Below are positions 41,625 through 49,102 of a stretch of 52,950 nt of DNA, one piece after another (within the stretch, counting starts at the first letter, position 1; each line of letters starts with the position of its first letter). Source of the stretch: Patescibacteria group bacterium (GTDB taxonomy: Bacteria > Patescibacteriota > Minisyncoccia > Minisyncoccales > UBA5738); NCBI GenBank assembly GCA_022710775.1, contig JAKLGH010000007.1:9184-62133 (forward strand), read 5' to 3'. Under the pieces are notes generated by a model. It was given only the letters and a program-made list of their open reading frames with translations, did not search any database and was not told where the DNA came from. The position numbers were made by a program, and so were the translations under genes.

Positions 41625-42848
41625 ATGTCGCTAGATATCACAACCTGGCTGGTGATCAATAAAGTGATCATCGTTCTAGTGAATATCGTCGGGTTTTGGC
41701 TGGCCGGTACGAGCCTGTTTGGATCTTTAGGCCAAAAAACGAACAAATATTTCTTCATTTTCGCTACTTGCTTGCTCGTCTGGATCGATCTTCAGTTTGT
41801 TATTACCTTCTCATCTTTTTTATTCCCCCTGCCTTTTAATATTCTTGGCGCATTATGGGCGAAAAGGCTGACTTACGCCGTTTTAGCGCTTTTTTTTATT
41901 TCTTTTTATTATTTTACTTTGTATTTTCCGCGCGAAGGCCAGCGTTCCCGGGCGTTTGATATCGGTTTTGTTTCGGCGTGGGTGGTTCTTTTCCTCCTGT
42001 CTTTTTCCCCCTGGATGGTATCCGAGGTTTTTTCCCCTAATATGATAACGGGAGCGGGGGATGCCGTCTATTATTACGCCATCATTATTTCCATCTTTGT
42101 CTGCTTGTTTAACGTCTTAAGCAAAAACCGTTATCTTACCAGCCAGGAAAAGGAAAAGGTCAATAACTTGATGCGAGGCGTCATTATTTTTGGCGCTTTC
42201 AAATCTTGGCCGCTCACAACGGTAGCTTACGGCAGCATTCTAAGCCAGTATTCCTTGATTTTTTTATTGGGGTTTGTCGCTTATGCGGTAAACCAGAAAG
42301 AGATCTTCGAAATGAAAGTGATCCTGGTCGAATTGCTGCTGGGCACCATCGGGGCGATTCTGCTCATTCTGCCTTTTGTGACGGAAAATATTTGGCTGAA
42401 AGCCGCGCACTACGTTCTTTTCATCTTATTTTGCGTTTTTTTTGACATCATAATGAAAAGCGTAATTAAGGAGTTCCAGGAGAAAGAGATATTGGAAAAA
42501 AAGGTGGAGCAGCGGACAGGCGAATTGGAAGCGGCCAAAAAAAACCTGGAAGAGACCAATGCCGTCCTTGAAGTAAGGGTAAGAGCGCGTACGCTGGAAT
42601 TGCAAAAATTAAACCAAACCTTGGAAGAAAAGGTGGAAGAAAGAACTGTCGACCTTCAGGAGAAAATGAGAGAATTGGAAAGGTTTAACCGGCTTTCCGT
42701 CGGCCGGGAATTAAAAATGATCGAGTTGAAAAAAAAGATCGCGGATATGGAAGATGAGCAAAAGAAAAAACCGAAAAGGCTTTTAGGCGACAAAATGGAG
42801 AATAAGGGGGCGGAACCGTCTTCTGCCAGCCAGTTAAAAGCGGATTAA
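41625..42848 (+). CDS. Multi-TM (about 8 helices) membrane protein with a C-terminal coiled coil carrying two signalling-helix motifs (…ERT.EL / ERTVDL…). It has no kinase domain.
   Basis: Tandem paralogue of ORF 42852-44102. The coiled-coil motif is shared with the N-terminus of the histidine kinase at 44140. Confidence 0.6.
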   Translation: MSLDITTWLVINKVIIVLVNIVGFWLAGTSLFGSLGQKTNKYFFIFATCLLVWIDLQFVITFSSFLFPLPFNILGALWAKRLTYAVLALFFISFYYFTLYFPREGQRSRAFDIGFVSAWVVLFLLSFSPWMVSEVFSPNMITGAGDAVYYYAIIISIFVCLFNVLSKNRYLTSQEKEKVNNLMRGVIIFGAFKSWPLTTVAYGSILSQYSLIFLLGFVAYAVNQKEIFEMKVILVELLLGTIGAILLILPFVTENIWLKAAHYVLFILFCVFFDIIMKSVIKEFQEKEILEKKVEQRTGELEAAKKNLEETNAVLEVRVRARTLELQKLNQTLEEKVEERTVDLQEKMRELERFNRLSVGRELKMIELKKKIADMEDEQKKKPKRLLGDKMENKGAEPSSASQLKAD

Positions 42849-42851
42849 AAA

Positions 42852-44102
42852 ATGTTAGAAAACATAGCTCAGCATTTCGTATTGATAAACAAATTAACGG
42901 TTTTTTTGATAAATGCGATCGGCTTAGAGCTGGCTTTTTGGGTTTATTTTATCAACCGGAAACAAAGGGTCAATAAACTTTTTTTATTTTTCACTCTTTG
43001 CTTGATAGTCTGGGTCGATTTTGATTTTTTAGGCACATTCGCGCCGTTTCTTTTCGCGGAAGCCGATGTTGTGTGGGTGACGCTGATAGCCACCAGGATT
43101 ATTTTTGCTTTTCTGTGCCCGTTTTTTCTTTTTTTATATTTTTTCTCGGTTCATACCTTAAACCCCGACAGAAAGCCTAAAATAATGGAAGTTATTCAGT
43201 CGGTAGCATGGACCGTGCTGCTTGCCCTTTCGTTTACCGACTTGATTGTTGCCGACGTTGCGATCAATCCTATCGATCCGATAGCGACACAGGTAATTCC
43301 CGGCCGCTTTCTAATCTTTTATTTAATTTTTGCGGTTTTCTCTTTCGCGATATCTTTGCTCAATCTGGCCAAAAAATACGCAAAGATGTCTTCAGCCACG
43401 AAAAAGAAATTTTCTTACATCCTTGCGGCTTTAAGTCTATTTGGGATTTTTAACATAATATTCAACGTTGTCATTCCGGCATATTGGAATGTTTATCCGG
43501 GGCAAATATCCCTTATCGGGGATTATTCGATCATTCTGCTTCTCGCTTTCGCCGGCTACTTAATCATAAAAGAGAGGTTGTTTGGCATAAAAATAATTCT
43601 AACAGAGATTCTGATAGGTTTGATGGGCGCCATTCTGGCCATCATGCCATTTTTAATCGATGTGCTGTGGCAGCGCATCCTTCTTGCCCTGCTTTTTTTC
43701 CTTTTTTGCATTTTTAGCTACCTGCTCATCAAAAGCACCATTAGGGAATACCGAGAGAAAGAATTGTTGGAACATCAAGTAAGGAAAAGGACGCAAGAAT
43801 TGGAAAGCGCCAAGAAAAACCTTGAAGAATTAAATACCGTTTTGGAAATCAGAGTGGCGGCTCGGACGGCGGAATTGGAAAAATTAAATCAAACCCTCGA
43901 GGAAAAAGTGAAAGAAAGAACTACCGATCTCAGGCAAAAGATCAGCGACCTGGAAAAATTCCAAAAACTAACTGTTGGACGGGAATTAAAAATGATAGAA
44001 TTAAAAAAGGAAATAGAAACGCAAAAGACGCGAGTCAAACAGCTGGAAGCTAAAAAAGGAAAAAGCGATTTGAAGCTGAAGGCGGCTGTGGCGCACGGTT
44101 GA
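42852..44102 (+). CDS. Paralogous multi-TM membrane protein with a C-terminal signalling-helix coiled coil
   Basis: Same architecture as 41625-42848. The C-terminal …LNQTLEEKV.ERT.DL..K...LE.F..L.VGRELKMIELKK segment is about 70% identical between the two. Confidence 0.6.
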   Translation: MLENIAQHFVLINKLTVFLINAIGLELAFWVYFINRKQRVNKLFLFFTLCLIVWVDFDFLGTFAPFLFAEADVVWVTLIATRIIFAFLCPFFLFLYFFSVHTLNPDRKPKIMEVIQSVAWTVLLALSFTDLIVADVAINPIDPIATQVIPGRFLIFYLIFAVFSFAISLLNLAKKYAKMSSATKKKFSYILAALSLFGIFNIIFNVVIPAYWNVYPGQISLIGDYSIILLLAFAGYLIIKERLFGIKIILTEILIGLMGAILAIMPFLIDVLWQRILLALLFFLFCIFSYLLIKSTIREYREKELLEHQVRKRTQELESAKKNLEELNTVLEIRVAARTAELEKLNQTLEEKVKERTTDLRQKISDLEKFQKLTVGRELKMIELKKEIETQKTRVKQLEAKKGKSDLKLKAAVAHG

Positions 44103-44139
44103 CGGCAAGCGGCGACTTTATTGTCTCAAAAAAGCGACA

Positions 44140-45573
44140 ATGGAAAAAAACGATAAAAAATTAAACCAAAAAGACGAATTTGGGCCAGCATTCAGCTTTT
44201 CCAAAGAAGAGCTGTTGCTGGAGCTTGAAAACCTCAATCGGATGATGGCAGCAAAGGACATGCAGATCATCCAATTAAAGGAAAAAAGAGGGGAGGAGAT
44301 CAAAGAACTCCAAGCCATTAAAGCCCAGCTTGAAGAGGCCAAGGGAATTTTGGAGATCAAAGTGGAAGCTAAAACGAAAGAGTTGAGGAATTTAACCGAA
44401 AGCCTCGAAAAGCAAATTAAGGAGCGGACTAAAGAATTGCAGGAAAAAGTGGAGGAATCGGAAAATTCCAGAGTTGCTTTGATGAATATGCTGGAGGATA
44501 TGGAAGAATTGCGCCGGCGCACCGAACAGGAAAAAGAGAAAACTTTAGCCATTATTACCACTTTCTCCGACGGCCTCCTTTTTTTTGATCCGCTGAACAA
44601 GCTGACATTAATCAATCCTCAAGCCGAGAGCTATTTCGAGATTGATCTGAATGCCAGCAAGCAGCTTATCGGGGAAAAGATCGGCGATTTGAGAAAAAAT
44701 CCGAAATTCGAGTATCTCGCGGATCTTTTGGGGCCGAAAATGAAAAAAATCTTCCGGAAAGAGATTCCAATGAAACAAAATTTAACTTTGGAAGTCAGCA
44801 CAGTTGCTGTTGGGAATGAACAGAGCAAAGTGGGCACTTTAGTTATTCTCCACGATATTACGCGTGAAAAAACAGTTGAAAGGATGAAAACCGAATTTGT
44901 ATCTATTGCCGCGCACCAGCTGCGGACGCCGATGTCGGCAATCAAATGGACGCTGCGCATGATTTTGGACGGCGACCTCGGGCCTATTACGAGCGAGCAG
45001 AAAGATTTTTTGGACAAGAGCTACGTTTCCAACGAGAGGATGATCAGCCTTATCAACGACTTGCTTAATGTTACGCGAATAGAAGAGGGCAGGCATTTAT
45101 ATAACCTGATCCTGGTAAATCTTGAAGACTTAACCAGCAATATCGTAAGCTCTTACACGGAAATCGCAAAAAGGAAAAGCCTCGCGCTTGAATACGTCAA
45201 GCCGGAGCAAAAATTACCGCAAGTTAAGGTTGATGTTGAAAAGATCAGGCTGGTAATTTCCAACTTGATCGAGAATGCCATCAAATATACTCCGGTCAAA
45301 GGAAGCATTGCCGTAAAAGTGTCGGTTGAAGAAGGCCGGGTGCAAGTAGCCGTAAAGGACACCGGTGTTGGAATCTTGAAAGACCAGCAGGAAAGGATTT
45401 TTACGAAGTTTTTCCGGGGAACCAACGTAATGAGGATGGAAACCGAAGGCACCGGGCTCGGTCTCTTTATTGCCAAGAATATTGTTGAAACCCATGGCGG
45501 GAAAATATGGTTCGAGTCCGAAGAGGGGAAAGGAACTACGTTTTTGTTCAATTTGCCGACAGCGGCTGTTTAA
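44140..45573 (+). CDS. Soluble sensor histidine kinase: N-terminal coiled coil with a signalling-helix motif, a PAS-like region, HisKA (IAAHQLRTPMSAI) and HATPase_c (GTGLGL)
   Basis: Motifs read directly. No TM helix. Confidence 0.8.
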   Translation: MEKNDKKLNQKDEFGPAFSFSKEELLLELENLNRMMAAKDMQIIQLKEKRGEEIKELQAIKAQLEEAKGILEIKVEAKTKELRNLTESLEKQIKERTKELQEKVEESENSRVALMNMLEDMEELRRRTEQEKEKTLAIITTFSDGLLFFDPLNKLTLINPQAESYFEIDLNASKQLIGEKIGDLRKNPKFEYLADLLGPKMKKIFRKEIPMKQNLTLEVSTVAVGNEQSKVGTLVILHDITREKTVERMKTEFVSIAAHQLRTPMSAIKWTLRMILDGDLGPITSEQKDFLDKSYVSNERMISLINDLLNVTRIEEGRHLYNLILVNLEDLTSNIVSSYTEIAKRKSLALEYVKPEQKLPQVKVDVEKIRLVISNLIENAIKYTPVKGSIAVKVSVEEGRVQVAVKDTGVGILKDQQERIFTKFFRGTNVMRMETEGTGLGLFIAKNIVETHGGKIWFESEEGKGTTFLFNLPTAAV

Positions 45574-45694
45574 GCGCCGGTTTGCTCCGAGATCAAAGAG
45601 GTGTTCCTTATTTATTGTAAATTTCGGAAAAAAATTCTAAAATAGCCTTATACCCGCGGGTATGGAGCGCGGCTGTGCAAGCATATAAACGTTT

Positions 45695-46066
45695 ATGGCA
45701 AAAAAAATCCTGCTAGTTGAAGATGAAGACCTGATCATAAAATTATTGCAAAAGAAGCTGGTCAGCGAAGGATACGATGTAACGATAGCCAGCGACGGGG
45801 AAGAGGGAATGAAAGCTCTCAGGCAAAACAAGCCGGAACTCGTTTTGCTTGATATTGTTATGCCGAAAAAAGGCGGATTCGAAGTTCTAGAAGAGATCAA
45901 TCAGGATGCCGATCTTAGAAATATCCCTGTGATTATAATATCCAATTCCGGGCAGCCGATGGAGCTGGACCGCGCCCAAAGGCTGGGAGTTAAGGACTGG
46001 CTTATTAAAACGGAATTTGACCCCAAGGAGGTGCTGGAAAAAGTTATTAAACAGATCGGAAAATAA
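45695..46066 (+). CDS. Single-domain response regulator (REC only, CheY-like)
   Basis: LLVEDED…D(58)IVMP…K motif pattern. 123 aa. Confidence 0.8.
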   Translation: MAKKILLVEDEDLIIKLLQKKLVSEGYDVTIASDGEEGMKALRQNKPELVLLDIVMPKKGGFEVLEEINQDADLRNIPVIIISNSGQPMELDRAQRLGVKDWLIKTEFDPKEVLEKVIKQIGK

Positions 46067-46123
46067 AATTATTTGTAAAAATAAGAACGGCCCCAAAAGG
46101 CCTGTGTAAATTAATTTAATCAT

Positions 46124-46492
46124 ATGGCAAAAAGAATCTTAATTGTCGAGGACGACCGGTTTTTAAGAGAGCTAATCGTAAAGAAGCTGTCCAATGAAGC
46201 TTACGACGTATTGGAGGCTGTCGACGGGGAACAGGGATTGCAAAAAACAAAAGAAACCAAACCTGATTTGATTCTTTTGGATTTAATTCTTCCCGGAATA
46301 GACGGTTTTGAGGTTTTAACGCGGAAAAAAGACGATCCGACAATCGCATCCATTCCCGTTATTGTTTTATCGAATCTCGGCCAAAAAGAGGATGTTGAAA
46401 AGGGGCTGGGATTGGGAGCCGTTGATTATCTGATTAAGGCTCATTTTACGCCGGGCGAAATCATTGAAAAAGTAAGAAACATTTTAAAGTAA
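46124..46492 (+). CDS. Second single-domain response regulator (REC only)
   Basis: ILIVEDD…LLDLILPGIDGFEVL…K. 122 aa. Confidence 0.8.
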   Translation: MAKRILIVEDDRFLRELIVKKLSNEAYDVLEAVDGEQGLQKTKETKPDLILLDLILPGIDGFEVLTRKKDDPTIASIPVIVLSNLGQKEDVEKGLGLGAVDYLIKAHFTPGEIIEKVRNILK

Positions 46493-47482: not shown

Positions 47483-48421
47483 ATGATCATTTTCTTATAC
47501 GGCGAAGATACCTACCGCCTGAATAAAAAATTGAACGAAATTATACAGCAATACAAAAACCAAAAAAAAGGGTTGAATTTTGTTTCATTCGATGCCGCAG
47601 TTTCTCCGTACGAAGAATTTTCCCGGGAAATCAGACAAAAGTCCATATTCGGGGAAAAAAAGTTCGCAATTGCCAGAAACGTAATTTCAAACAAGAATTT
47701 CAAAGAGGACCTGCTAAAAGATATTGATAGTTTAGCCGGATCCGGAGACGTGATTGTGGCTTGCCAGGAAGGCCATGTTTTAAAAACCGACCGGTTGCTT
47801 TCCGCATTTAAAAAAAGCGCCAAATGCCAGGAATTCGAACTGCTTAGCCCAATAAAACTGAATGCATGGGCTCAGAAGGAAGCTGAAAGCCTTGGTTTAA
47901 AAATTTCGAAAGCCGCATTGGACAAGCTGGTTCTGTTCATCGGCAATGACTTATGGCGATTATCGAACGAAATCCAAAAGCTGGCTAATTACCGTTACGG
48001 AAAAAATGGAGAAGCTCAAGAAGAAGATGTCGTATTGCTGGTCAAACCCACGGTTGAAACCGATATCTTTAAAACCGTAGATGCTTTGGCCAAGAAAAAC
48101 AAAAAACTGGCTCTTTTGCTGGTTCATGAGCACTTGGAAGCCGGAGATTCCCATTTTTATATCCTTTCGATGATCAATTACCAATTCCGAAACTTGGTCA
48201 TCGTAAAAGCTGAATCAGAAAGGGTAGGCGGCAGCCAGGGATTGGCTAAGGACTTTGGTATTCATCCTTACGTTATTCGTAAATCGTTAGAGTTGAGCCG
48301 CGCCTTTACCTCGGCTGATTTAAAGAGGATATACTTAAAGATTTTTCAAATAGACTTGGACGTAAAAACCGGAAAATTAAATGCCGAAGTTGCGCTGGAC
48401 CTGCTGATTTCTGAAATTTAA
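47483..48421 (+). CDS. holA: DNA polymerase III delta subunit
   Basis: MIIFLYGEDTYRLNKKLNEI N-terminus and a three-domain architecture of about 310 aa. The start was moved to the ATG at 47483. The upstream extension overlaps mutM. Confidence 0.7.
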   Translation: MIIFLYGEDTYRLNKKLNEIIQQYKNQKKGLNFVSFDAAVSPYEEFSREIRQKSIFGEKKFAIARNVISNKNFKEDLLKDIDSLAGSGDVIVACQEGHVLKTDRLLSAFKKSAKCQEFELLSPIKLNAWAQKEAESLGLKISKAALDKLVLFIGNDLWRLSNEIQKLANYRYGKNGEAQEEDVVLLVKPTVETDIFKTVDALAKKNKKLALLLVHEHLEAGDSHFYILSMINYQFRNLVIVKAESERVGGSQGLAKDFGIHPYVIRKSLELSRAFTSADLKRIYLKIFQIDLDVKTGKLNAEVALDLLISEI

Positions 48422-48440
48422 CCAACGTTAAGGCGAACAA

Positions 48441-48467
48441 AAAACCGCAGTTTGATGCGGTTTTTTG
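48441..48467 (+). terminator. Rho-independent terminator of holA (CCGCA-gtttga-TGCGG followed by TTTTTTG)
   Basis: Read directly. Confidence 0.65.
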
Positions 48468-48494
48468 TTCGGTTTCAAGATTTATTATTTTGCA

Positions 48495-48812
48495 AACCCA
48501 AGGGTACCCTGGGAACAAAATATCGACGATTCCAAAGGAGGCTACTCCTTTGACCCCGCAGGCTGCGGGGAATACCACAGGAAAATCGAATTTATATTTT
48601 TCTATCGGTATTTCGCCTCCCGGGGTACGAACCCCCGGCGGTGACCGAAGGAAATCCCGAAGCATTGAGGGGCGACCAGAGGATGTTTCCTCCCCCGCAG
48701 GATGCGGGGCGGAGTACCTAAGTCCTCCTCATTTCTCCCCGCTTTTTGCGGGCAGGAAGCCTAAGGCTTCATTTTGTTCCAAGGGCTTGTCCCGGGGTCT
48801 ACAAATTAATAA
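48495..48812 (+). repeat. Repeat element R3 (about 318 nt). It carries terminal inverted repeats CCCTGGGAACAAAAT / ATTTTGTTCCAAGGG at 48507-48521 and 48771-48785. Its right 220 nt are an inverted copy of R4 (51421-51620).
   Basis: Alignment by eye of R4 against the reverse complement of R3. There is high identity across about 200 nt, with a 37-nt indel. Confidence 0.7.
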
Positions 48813-48817
48813 ATATT

Positions 48818-49102
48818 TTACTTCTTTTTGGCTTTTAATGCTACCGGTTTGGATAGGAATTTTGTGATTCTTGATTTTTTGCGGGAAGCGGTGTTTTTTT
48901 TGATCACGCCGGCTTTAGCCGCTTTATCCAGAGCTTTATAGATCGCAGAAAGGCTTTTTTTCGCTTCGGCAACTTTTTCCTGCCCGACAAGAGCTTTTGC
49001 TTCCTTTAAAAGGCTCTTCGCTTTTTGTTTATAAGCGGTATTGCGGATCTTTCTTTTTTGGCTTTGGCGAAGCGCTTTTTTTGCTGATTTTATTATAGGC
49101 AT
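48818..49102 (-). CDS. rpsT: 30S ribosomal protein S20
   Basis: MPIIKSAKKALRQSQKRKIRNTAYK… a canonical S20. Confidence 0.9.
   Translation of the reverse strand: MPIIKSAKKALRQSQKRKIRNTAYKQKAKSLLKEAKALVGQEKVAEAKKSLSAIYKALDKAAKAGVIKKNTASRKKSRITKFLSKPVALKAKKK

Follow-up and report, generated by a model that had tools for sequence, protein, structure and literature searches.

Kinase-less membrane sensors with a conserved C-terminal tail beside a soluble histidine kinase: a candidate split receptor cassette in Candidatus Paceibacterota

The stretch of DNA analysed here (52,950 nucleotides [nt], referred to as the window) comes from a Candidatus Paceibacterota genome and carries, at positions 41625-46492, five co-directional open reading frames (ORFs), all confirmed at the coordinates at which they were first read. 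These encode two membrane proteins without a kinase domain (M1 and M2), a soluble histidine kinase and two stand-alone receivers (R1 and R2); the closest database identity was a hypothetical protein from a metagenome-assembled genome of Candidatus Paceibacterota. The most conserved stretch of M1 and M2 is a C-terminal tail, F..L.VGRELKMIELKKEI, which forms the last part of the sensor helix and is matched in the adjacent kinase by an acidic helix located before a PAS-like domain. The features of the locus are given below, with positions in amino acids (aa) for the proteins.

41625..42848, + strand: M1, kinase-less membrane sensor of 407 aa with a multi-transmembrane (TM) module, an ERT signalling-helix array and a C-terminal tail (ORF; no kinase domain; paralogue of M2)
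42465..42680, + strand: ERT signalling-helix array of M1, aa 281-352, with QRTGEL, ARTLEL and ERTVDL (phmmer matches to coiled coil and kinase N-terminus; register shift per ERT)
42684..42740, + strand: C-terminal tail motif of M1, FNRLSVGRELKMIELKKKI, aa 354-372 (motif at aa 360; invariant or near-invariant columns in family alignment A1)
42852..44102, + strand: M2, kinase-less membrane sensor of 416 aa with nine TM helices, the last extending into a helix of ~145 residues (ORF; structure model; homologues with PF16927)
43740..43955, + strand: ERT signalling-helix array of M2, aa 297-368, with KRTQEL, ARTAEL and ERTTDL (45% identity to kinase aa 56-108; register analysis)
43959..44015, + strand: C-terminal tail motif of M2, FQKLTVGRELKMIELKKEI, aa 370-388, proposed docking or output element (conservation in A1; terminal position in relatives)
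44140..45573, + strand: soluble histidine kinase of 477 aa with coiled coil, acidic helix, PAS, HisKA and HATPase_c (Pfam, NCBIfam)
44200..44463, + strand: N-terminal coiled coil of the kinase, aa ~21-108, with AKTKEL and ERTKEL (homologous to the sensor array)
44464..44532, + strand: acidic pre-PAS helix of the kinase, NSRVALMNMLEDMEELRRRTEQE, aa 109-131, proposed receiving site for sensor tails (conserved in partner kinases)
44530..44874, + strand: PAS-like domain of the kinase, aa ~131-245 (weak Pfam PAS_8; PAS region of PnpS, WalK and PhoR models)
44884..45561, + strand: kinase core, HisKA aa 249-317 and HATPase_c aa 365-474 (Pfam)
45695..46066, + strand: R1, stand-alone receiver of the R1-type, …IIISNSGQP…DWLIKTEFDP… (Pfam Response_reg only)
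46124..46492, + strand: R2, stand-alone receiver of the R2-type, …VLSNLGQKEDV…DYLIKAHFTPGEIIEKV… (Pfam Response_reg only)

The proteins of the five-gene locus

M1 and M2 shared 40% aa identity over 398 aa (E=2e-88), which makes them tandem paralogues as proposed in a first-pass annotation of this DNA. The same annotation had them without a kinase domain, and this was confirmed by the absence of any HisKA or HATPase match in either protein even at E≤1 (Pfam and NCBIfam); both are without the H-box-bearing dimerisation and histidine-phosphotransfer (DHp) domain and the catalytic ATP-binding (CA) domain with its N, G1 and G2 boxes, and merely 25-30 low-complexity residues follow the tail. Two of the earlier counts were revised. 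An AlphaFold2 (AF2) model of M2 generated from a 28-sequence family alignment (mean predicted local distance difference test score [pLDDT] of 77) showed nine TM helices, not about eight, with a short β-hairpin loop and a last TM helix that runs on as a single helix over residues 272-415 (pLDDT of at least 90 over ~310-370), and each sensor contains three (K/Q/A/E)RTxx(E/D)L motifs instead of two, the kinase having two. Neither M1 nor M2 matched the HisKA_7TM family (PF16927) at E≤1, the only hit being a weak one to 7TMR-DISM_7TM (0.034); PF16927 is precomputed on M2 homologues (E 1e-49 to 1e-20) and is matched directly by five tail-bearing proteins. A Foldseek comparison of the membrane module with the PDB returned only generic bundles resembling G protein-coupled receptors (TM-score 0.3-0.45, root-mean-square deviation 7-10 Å) and gave no evidence of kinship. 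The 400-430-aa architecture of M1 and M2 is shared by ~70 clusters, and within the M2 family the membrane domain is ~40% identical, far below the conservation of the tail.

The genes for M1 and M2 are separated by 3 nt and those for M2 and the kinase by 37 nt. At 42846-42854, M1 and M2 share a reading frame, with the M1 stop and one codon between them (TAA AAA ATG), a tight coupling of the paralogous genes. No further receiver (REC), kinase or tail-bearing ORF was found elsewhere in the whole 52.9-kb window.

The kinase contains no hydrophobic or TM segment, in agreement with its earlier description as a histidine kinase without TM helix. Its HisKA (2.6e-15) and HATPase_c (3.5e-31) domains were recovered by Pfam, all boxes are intact (H, AHQLRTP; N, NLIENAIKY; G1, DTGVGI; G2, GTGLGL), and the protein aligned to models of the PnpS, WalK and PhoR type from about residue 88 on, PAS included. 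R1 and R2, likewise, are what they had been taken for, two single-domain REC proteins following the kinase: Response_reg was the only match, spanning residues 5-117 of 122-123 aa with no output domain, and the phospho-acceptor set is intact (acidic pocket VEDED/VEDDR, phospho-Asp in LLD, Ser in SN and Lys in IK). Because no output domain is present, R1 and R2 must act via protein-protein contact. Across lineages, the R2-type receiver varies extremely little (...VLSNLGQKEDV.KGL.LGA.DYLIKAHFTPGEIIEKV...), pointing to a target that is itself highly conserved.

The ERT array of each sensor covers ~100 residues and is homologous to the N-terminal coiled coil of the kinase, a closer relationship than the likeness in kind that was first described, with M2 316-368 and kinase 56-108 sharing 45% aa identity over 53 aa in an ungapped alignment (E=3e-11). 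In a coiled-coil register analysis, M1, M2 and the kinase underwent the same succession of heptad shifts, one per (E)RT motif, with near-identical a/d core residues across the three ERT blocks, and the RT columns were invariant in A1. The signalling helix (S-helix) was described by Anantharaman, Balaji and Aravind in 2006, in the part of the paper available to us (PMC1592074), as a ~40-residue heptad helix with a central conserved (E)RT signature, located between an upstream input domain and a downstream signalling or catalytic domain. The ERT heptads of M1, M2 and the kinase match this signature as well as the association with 7TM, HAMP, PAS and PocR inputs and histidine kinases given in the same paper (PMC1592074). 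The array of the kinase also fits the between-domains position, whereas M1 and M2 end in a three-unit array and a distinct tail with no downstream domain.

The shared ERT heptads had been put forward as the segment that would dock the kinase on the sensors, a proposal that was not supported in that form. The number of e/g salt bridges in the shared block was the same in homo-pairs and sensor-kinase pairs (4 attractive/2 repulsive in all, M1:M2 alone giving 2/4) and is uninformative on heterodimer preference. The shared block is also clade-specific, most partner kinases of other lineages having no long shared coiled coil but a PAS, HAMP or TM region in that place. The conserved and matched elements are instead the tail and the acidic helix.

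Conservation of the tail, the acidic helix and their gene neighbourhood

The C-terminal F..L.VGRELKMIELKK tail had not been singled out in the first reading of the sequence. In A1, every position from R377 to K385 of M2 is at least 90% conserved; the tail has the highest information content of the protein, and its conservation is contiguous over all helix faces whereas that of the ERT block is periodic (a conservation plot over positions -22 to +16 is open to ascertainment, of which A1 is free). A tail-only profile (39 columns) compared with 1.84 billion representative proteins matched 12,584 clusters, defined at 50% identity, at E≤1e-3 and 944 at E≤1e-10. Of 127 motif-positive top matches, 123 had the motif ending ≤30 residues from the C-terminus (median 15), and the position was likewise terminal in 89 occurrences across 80 genomic loci. 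A kinase core was found in none of 249 tail-bearing proteins. Among 100 tail-bearing proteins with a length of ≥200 aa that were surveyed with Pfam, the accompanying domains were HAMP (40), PAS (~14), dCache (12), HisKA_7TM (5), PilS-6TM (3), Cache_3-Cache_2 (3), PocR (2), 5TMR-LYT (1) and GAF (1), and no output domain of any type was detected.

The tail falls outside every Pfam and NCBIfam family, and a PDB sequence search with it returned only a prefoldin coiled coil (E>0.04). The sole curated model matching the ERT array together with the tail was NCBIfam NF053512 (NosR-family REC-HD-GYP), in its inter-domain linker (positions ~114-197, E ~1e-6, far below cutoff), and a helix similar to array and tail may thus serve as an internal linker in NosR-family regulators. 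The tail was also considered as a degenerate DHp helix-1 with its H-box (GRELK compared with SHELR); this was rejected, as a comparison by hhalign of 63 tails with 55 DHp regions of partner kinases returned a probability of 0.4%. Some small membrane proteins (P0121, 304 aa; P0122, 306 aa; and P0215) contain two tandem tail motifs with a charged linker between them. Multi-sensor proteins of proteobacterial type (P0184, 945 aa, along with P0123, P0124, P0205 and P0207) combine dCache, HAMP, PocR and PAS domains and have no output domain; in the P0184 group, an extended tail (...ERFNRLAVGRELRMIELK..VN.L...LG..PPY) occurs internally and at the C-terminus, in addition to an acidic A(L/M)NLAEDA..AR motif, and the single chain of P0184 reads tail, ~35-aa G/P/S-rich linker, acidic motif and PAS.

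Gene neighbourhoods were analysed in one genome per species using crude gene calls and phmmer with the window's own domains. From >600 pattern hits, 475 could be confirmed, and the best 80 loci were examined; these were mostly from Patescibacteria, with eight from DPANN or other archaea and three labelled Delta- or Gammaproteobacteria. The sensor-kinase gene arrangement was found to be conserved, with a same-strand histidine kinase downstream of the tail sensor in 54 of 66 assessable loci (82%, uncorrected for kinship among loci). The spacing was between -25 and +63 nt in 24 of the 54, many of the genes overlapping, and one to six tail sensors preceded a single kinase, with tails near-identical within a locus and lineage-specific between loci. 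Stand-alone RECs followed the kinase in 42 of 54 loci, as an ordered R1/R2 pair (32) or one REC (10), and the R1-type came first and the R2-type second in 32/32 two-REC loci, which makes them an ordered orthologous pair. The exact order of M1-like, M2-like, kinase, R1 and R2 genes recurs together with the flanking genes in loci L001 (81% identity) and L081 (58%), and because of this recurrence the tandem sensor pair is considered old and retained.

The acidic helix showed a corresponding distribution in the kinases adjacent to tail sensors (partner kinases). Their pre-PAS alignment gave the pattern S(R).AL(M/L)N(I/M)LED.EEAR..AE.EK.KT.AII.NF.DGL, while the region N-terminal of it varies, being the ERT coiled coil in the clade of the window and another PAS, HAMP or TM helices elsewhere. 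With a corrected pattern, the acidic motif was present in 50/53 partner kinases, compared with 3/12 other kinases of the same loci and 4/982 other ORFs (Fisher p=1.3e-6, uncorrected for shared ancestry). Two of the three partner kinases missing the motif are near-variants, and the three motif-positive other kinases are all in loci also holding tail sensors. Mean net charge was +1.55 for tails (17 residues, n=62) and -3.06 for kinase helices (18 residues, n=53). The PAS domain, kept in 42/54 partner kinases, is unlikely to be a universal tail receptor, as in L072_7 and L077_7, two partner kinases from archaea, DHp follows the acidic helix directly and no PAS is present; because of these two Woesearchaeota kinases, the acidic helix and not the PAS is taken as the common element.

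Kinship between sensors and kinases was evident at two levels. In other Patescibacteria, the 7TM module with the same membrane-exit sequence is fused straight to a DHp/CA core, which in the fused kinase P0085 is 39% identical to the core of the window kinase and has the same H-box type; at the level of domains, these fused 7TM kinases are a Rosetta stone for the proposed sensor-kinase link. In addition, tail sensor and adjacent kinase are paralogous over the kinase input region in L073 (53% aa identity over 282 aa, E=1e-114), L048 (46%, E=2e-37), L077 (28% over ~330 aa, E=3e-27) and L070 (32%, E=2e-22), which shows that tail sensors arose repeatedly by duplication of a kinase input region. Sensor and kinase of L077 align collinearly over dCache, HAMP and the ERT helix, after which the sensor reads ...ITVGRELKMIELKK... 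and reaches its C-terminal end, and the kinase at the same place reads ...TKNAMLNMMEDLDK... and continues into DHp. Judged by these alignments, tail and acidic helix are positional equivalents after a homologous ERT block. GRELKMIE of the tail was superposed on (N/G)A(M/L)LNM(M/L)E by BLAST for L077 and by MAFFT for L015, with shifts of 1-7 residues in other alignments; because the register differs between alignments, only positional equivalence and no residue-level homology is claimed.

Some loci contained further genes or other sensor arrangements. In L064 (Desulfuromonadaceae), six tail genes of varied size and domain content were found, five before a hybrid kinase and one after it, and two of the encoded proteins carry a REC with the tail as the only "output". 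L073 (Deltaproteobacteria) also has six tail genes of varied size and domains, all before one kinase. In many Patescibacteria, a conserved soluble protein of ~200 aa with no Pfam match, ending in ...ETKCxFxGDxYHEYxIxW, is encoded between tail sensor and kinase (L016, between 8615 and 9353, as well as L012, L019, L022, L023, L026, L030, L036 and L042). It is sometimes duplicated, is absent from the window and may be another stand-alone sensor; a V4R/H-NOX-like fold is no more than a guess. In L017, the gene in this position (L017_14) encodes a FIST_N+FIST_C protein (Pfam E=2e-47 and 3e-35), FIST being absent from the window, and genes of ~390 aa between sensor and kinase in L033, L035 and L043 were taken as FIST from size and position only.

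A candidate docking system and alternative readings

Synteny, gene overlap, fusions of 7TM modules to kinases and the absence of a kinase from all 249 tail proteins support the earlier proposal that the membrane modules and the soluble kinase are parts of one split receptor system. On balance, we consider it somewhat more likely than not that the five genes form one signalling cassette in which M1 and M2 are trans-acting input modules docking on a shared kinase, with the tail as their output element. M1 and M2 would be nine-TM sensors related to the 7TM input of histidine kinases, each with a long, presumably dimeric array ending in a basic tail, and the kinase would have lost its own sensor and kept a paralogous ERT coiled coil and the acidic helix (ALMNMLEDMEE) before PAS-DHp-CA. 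The cytoplasmic helices of M1, M2 or both could associate with the N-terminal helices of the kinase, the homologous ERT blocks conferring compatibility and the pairing of basic tail with acidic helix conferring specificity. A conformational change in either sensor may then be passed on to PAS/DHp and shift the kinase/phosphatase balance, and the kinase would phosphorylate the R1-type and R2-type receivers. Physical docking is inferred, and the same applies to the geometry and stoichiometry of a complex, to the direction and sign in which the sensors would regulate the kinase, and to the receiver targets.

In a broader and more tentative proposal, about which we have somewhat more doubt than confidence, the cassette of the window would be a minimal example of a widespread "plug-and-socket" layer. 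Thousands of output-less sensors (7TM, HAMP, dCache, PAS, PocR and even REC) would insert a common basic tail into an acidic helix upstream of PAS/DHp, and interchangeable sensors derived from input-region duplication and a swap of helix charge would share one kinase.

A number of observations weigh against the docking of tail sensors on the adjacent kinase. Hetero-pairing is not favoured over homo-pairing in the ERT block, hhalign found no significant similarity between tail and acidic helix past this block, and the residue-level register between the two differs among alignments. The deltaproteobacterial partner kinase L073_12 is without the acidic motif, a downstream kinase is absent in 12/66 loci, and the association statistics carry no correction for phylogenetic relatedness of the loci. 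Internal copies of the tail are present in large multi-sensor proteins of proteobacteria, and the NosR-family model has a REC-HD-GYP linker that is matched by a tail-like stretch; because of these internal occurrences and the linker match, the tail could be a general structural helix and not a dedicated docking peptide. Such a role, in which coiled coil and tail would provide only homo-oligomerisation or a structural terminator, M1 and M2 would work independently of the kinase (for example with an unlinked partner) and synteny would reflect co-regulation, would also account for the loci without a downstream kinase. It is, however, difficult to reconcile with same-strand adjacency over distant phyla and overlapping genes, with the mutual exclusion of tail and kinase core within a polypeptide, with the specific enrichment of the acidic motif in adjacent kinases and with accompanying domains that are all kinase input modules, and we regard it as very unlikely.

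The kinase-less paralogues could alternatively be decoys or negative regulators forming mixed, non-productive oligomers with the kinase via the paralogous helices or input modules. The kinase would thereby be titrated or silenced, much as truncated receptors exert a dominant-negative effect or as RetS acts on GacS. This would agree with sensors being paralogous to the kinase input region in several loci and with ERT cores that are equally compatible in homo- and hetero-pairs, and regulation between kinases via heteromerisation is known (PMC5992135). However, the sensor modules are well conserved and of great diversity, the convergence of as many as six different sensors on one kinase fits multi-input integration better than titration, and a pure decoy would leave the window kinase, with no sensor of its own, without any input; a decoy function appears unlikely. 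Phosphorylated CheY (CheY-P) binds short peptides of FliM or CheZ, and a comparable docking of phosphorylated R1/R2 on the tail could serve feedback, adaptation or localisation. In its favour, R1 and R2, with no output domain, need some binding partner, the tail is a short terminal element with conservation on every helix face, and an ordered R1/R2 pair is present in 32/54 loci with a single REC in 10 more. A receiver as the partner of the tail is nevertheless distinctly unlikely, as in 12/54 sensor-kinase loci the kinase is not followed by a stand-alone REC, the presence of the tail co-varies with the acidic helix of the kinase, and tail and acidic helix stand at the same place in collinear paralogues.

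Among the outcomes that the first-pass annotation had named as overturning the split receptor is that M1 and M2 are degenerate kinase pseudogenes. Decayed histidine kinases with the catalytic half lost would be compatible with a membrane module related to the 7TM input domain of such kinases, but this reading is refuted by conservation and retains a negligible probability. The ORFs are intact with a strongly conserved C-terminus, and spacers of 3 and 37 nt leave no room for decayed kinase remnants. The exact arrangement is kept in L001 and L081, the tandem pair being maintained at 58% identity, ~70 clusters have the same architecture and 12,584 clusters carry the tail.

Relation to known systems and surroundings of the locus

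Regarding the preferred reading, in which M1 and M2 dock on the shared kinase, the closest documented mode is that of NosP (FIST)-NosK/NahK and H-NOX-HnoK, with a separate sensor gene beside a soluble kinase lacking its own sensory domain. In NosP-NosK, the auxiliary sensor binds the adjacent sensor-less soluble kinase and sets its autophosphorylation rate (PMC12570481). A further likeness is the FIST domain of the nitric oxide sensor NosP found between tail sensor and kinase in the sister locus L017. In contrast to these systems, M1 and M2 are membrane proteins with no FIST or H-NOX match (Pfam, NCBIfam), one common helical tail is carried by many sensor types with several sensors per kinase, and the output in the window consists of two receiver-only proteins and not, as for NosP-NosK, of an HD-GYP regulator. 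HisKA_7TM kinases resemble the cassette in that relatives of M1 and M2 carry PF16927, a module elsewhere fused to the kinase core; M1 and M2 differ from them in having no DHp and CA domains, two extra TM helices (nine in total), an ERT array of ~100 residues and a tail instead.

The chemotaxis system of methyl-accepting chemotaxis protein (MCP), CheW, CheA and CheY shares with the cassette membrane receptors with long coiled coils, a soluble kinase, convergence of receptors and single-domain receivers. M1 and M2, however, showed no MCP signalling domain at E≤1, the kinase is of the HisKA family and not CheA-type, and the sensor helix of M2 is a single extended one per chain in the AF2 model and not a hairpin. 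No CheA/CheW-type protein was seen among the flanking genes scanned, with no direct search for CheA/CheW and no Pfam scan of the rest of the window. In RetS-GacS, one signalling protein controls another kinase by direct heteromeric helix-helix contact (PMC5992135), and a similar contact would apply to M1 and M2. RetS has its own DHp and CA domains, whereas M1 and M2 have neither and their tail is not DHp-like by the hhalign comparison with DHp/H-box regions (probability 0.4%). Tail sensors also differ from what are termed "split histidine kinases", which in PMC3591291 are those with separated DHp and CA domains.

Tail-bearing kinase-less sensors were not described in the full-text literature searched, in which subscription journals are poorly covered, nor in Pfam, NCBIfam or PDB. 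Auxiliary sensors controlling a kinase are known; the matched signature of tail and acidic helix is very widespread and apparently undescribed. If docking of the tail is true, it would provide a partner and a pathway for a large class of "orphan" output-less sensors (12,584 clusters), show how a single kinase can serve to integrate several inputs in the tiny genomes of Patescibacteria and DPANN archaea, and offer a natural modular sensor-kinase interface usable for re-wiring two-component systems. The finding also qualifies the view of the signalling helix as an intramolecular connector of two domains.

The cassette is flanked by housekeeping genes, with a T2SSE/PilB-type ATPase, TsaE and a 5'-3' exonuclease on one side and Fpg, HolA and a Mur ligase on the other. 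A functional tie to the upstream T2SSE/PilB-type ATPase was considered and set aside, as this gene is on the opposite strand with housekeeping genes in between. The flanking genes are the same in L081, a close relative with genome-wide synteny, the flanks of more distant loci lying outside the comparison.

The holA-rpsT spacer (48421-48818, ~400 nt) contains a 291-nt segment (48500-48790) that folds at -132 kcal/mol (z=-6.0 compared with 200 shuffles), with a 15-nt long-range closing stem (48507-48521 / 48771-48785) enclosing three GC hairpins. A comparison of this segment with Rfam gave nothing at the gathering threshold and nothing convincing at E≤1. Because the syntenic spacer of L081 is only 77 nt, the structured segment is regarded as an inserted element, and it could be a structured RNA or an insertion resembling a repetitive extragenic palindromic (REP) sequence or a miniature inverted-repeat transposable element (MITE), on either strand. 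A palindromic hairpin, CCCCGCAGG(N)TGCGGGG, was found at 1496-1512, 48554-48570 and 48693-48709, with a weaker copy at 48737-48753; one copy is beside tRNA-Pro and the others are inside the 48.5-kb spacer. Its chance expectation is nil (0 in 100 shuffles), and the hairpin looks like a REP-like repeat of this genome.

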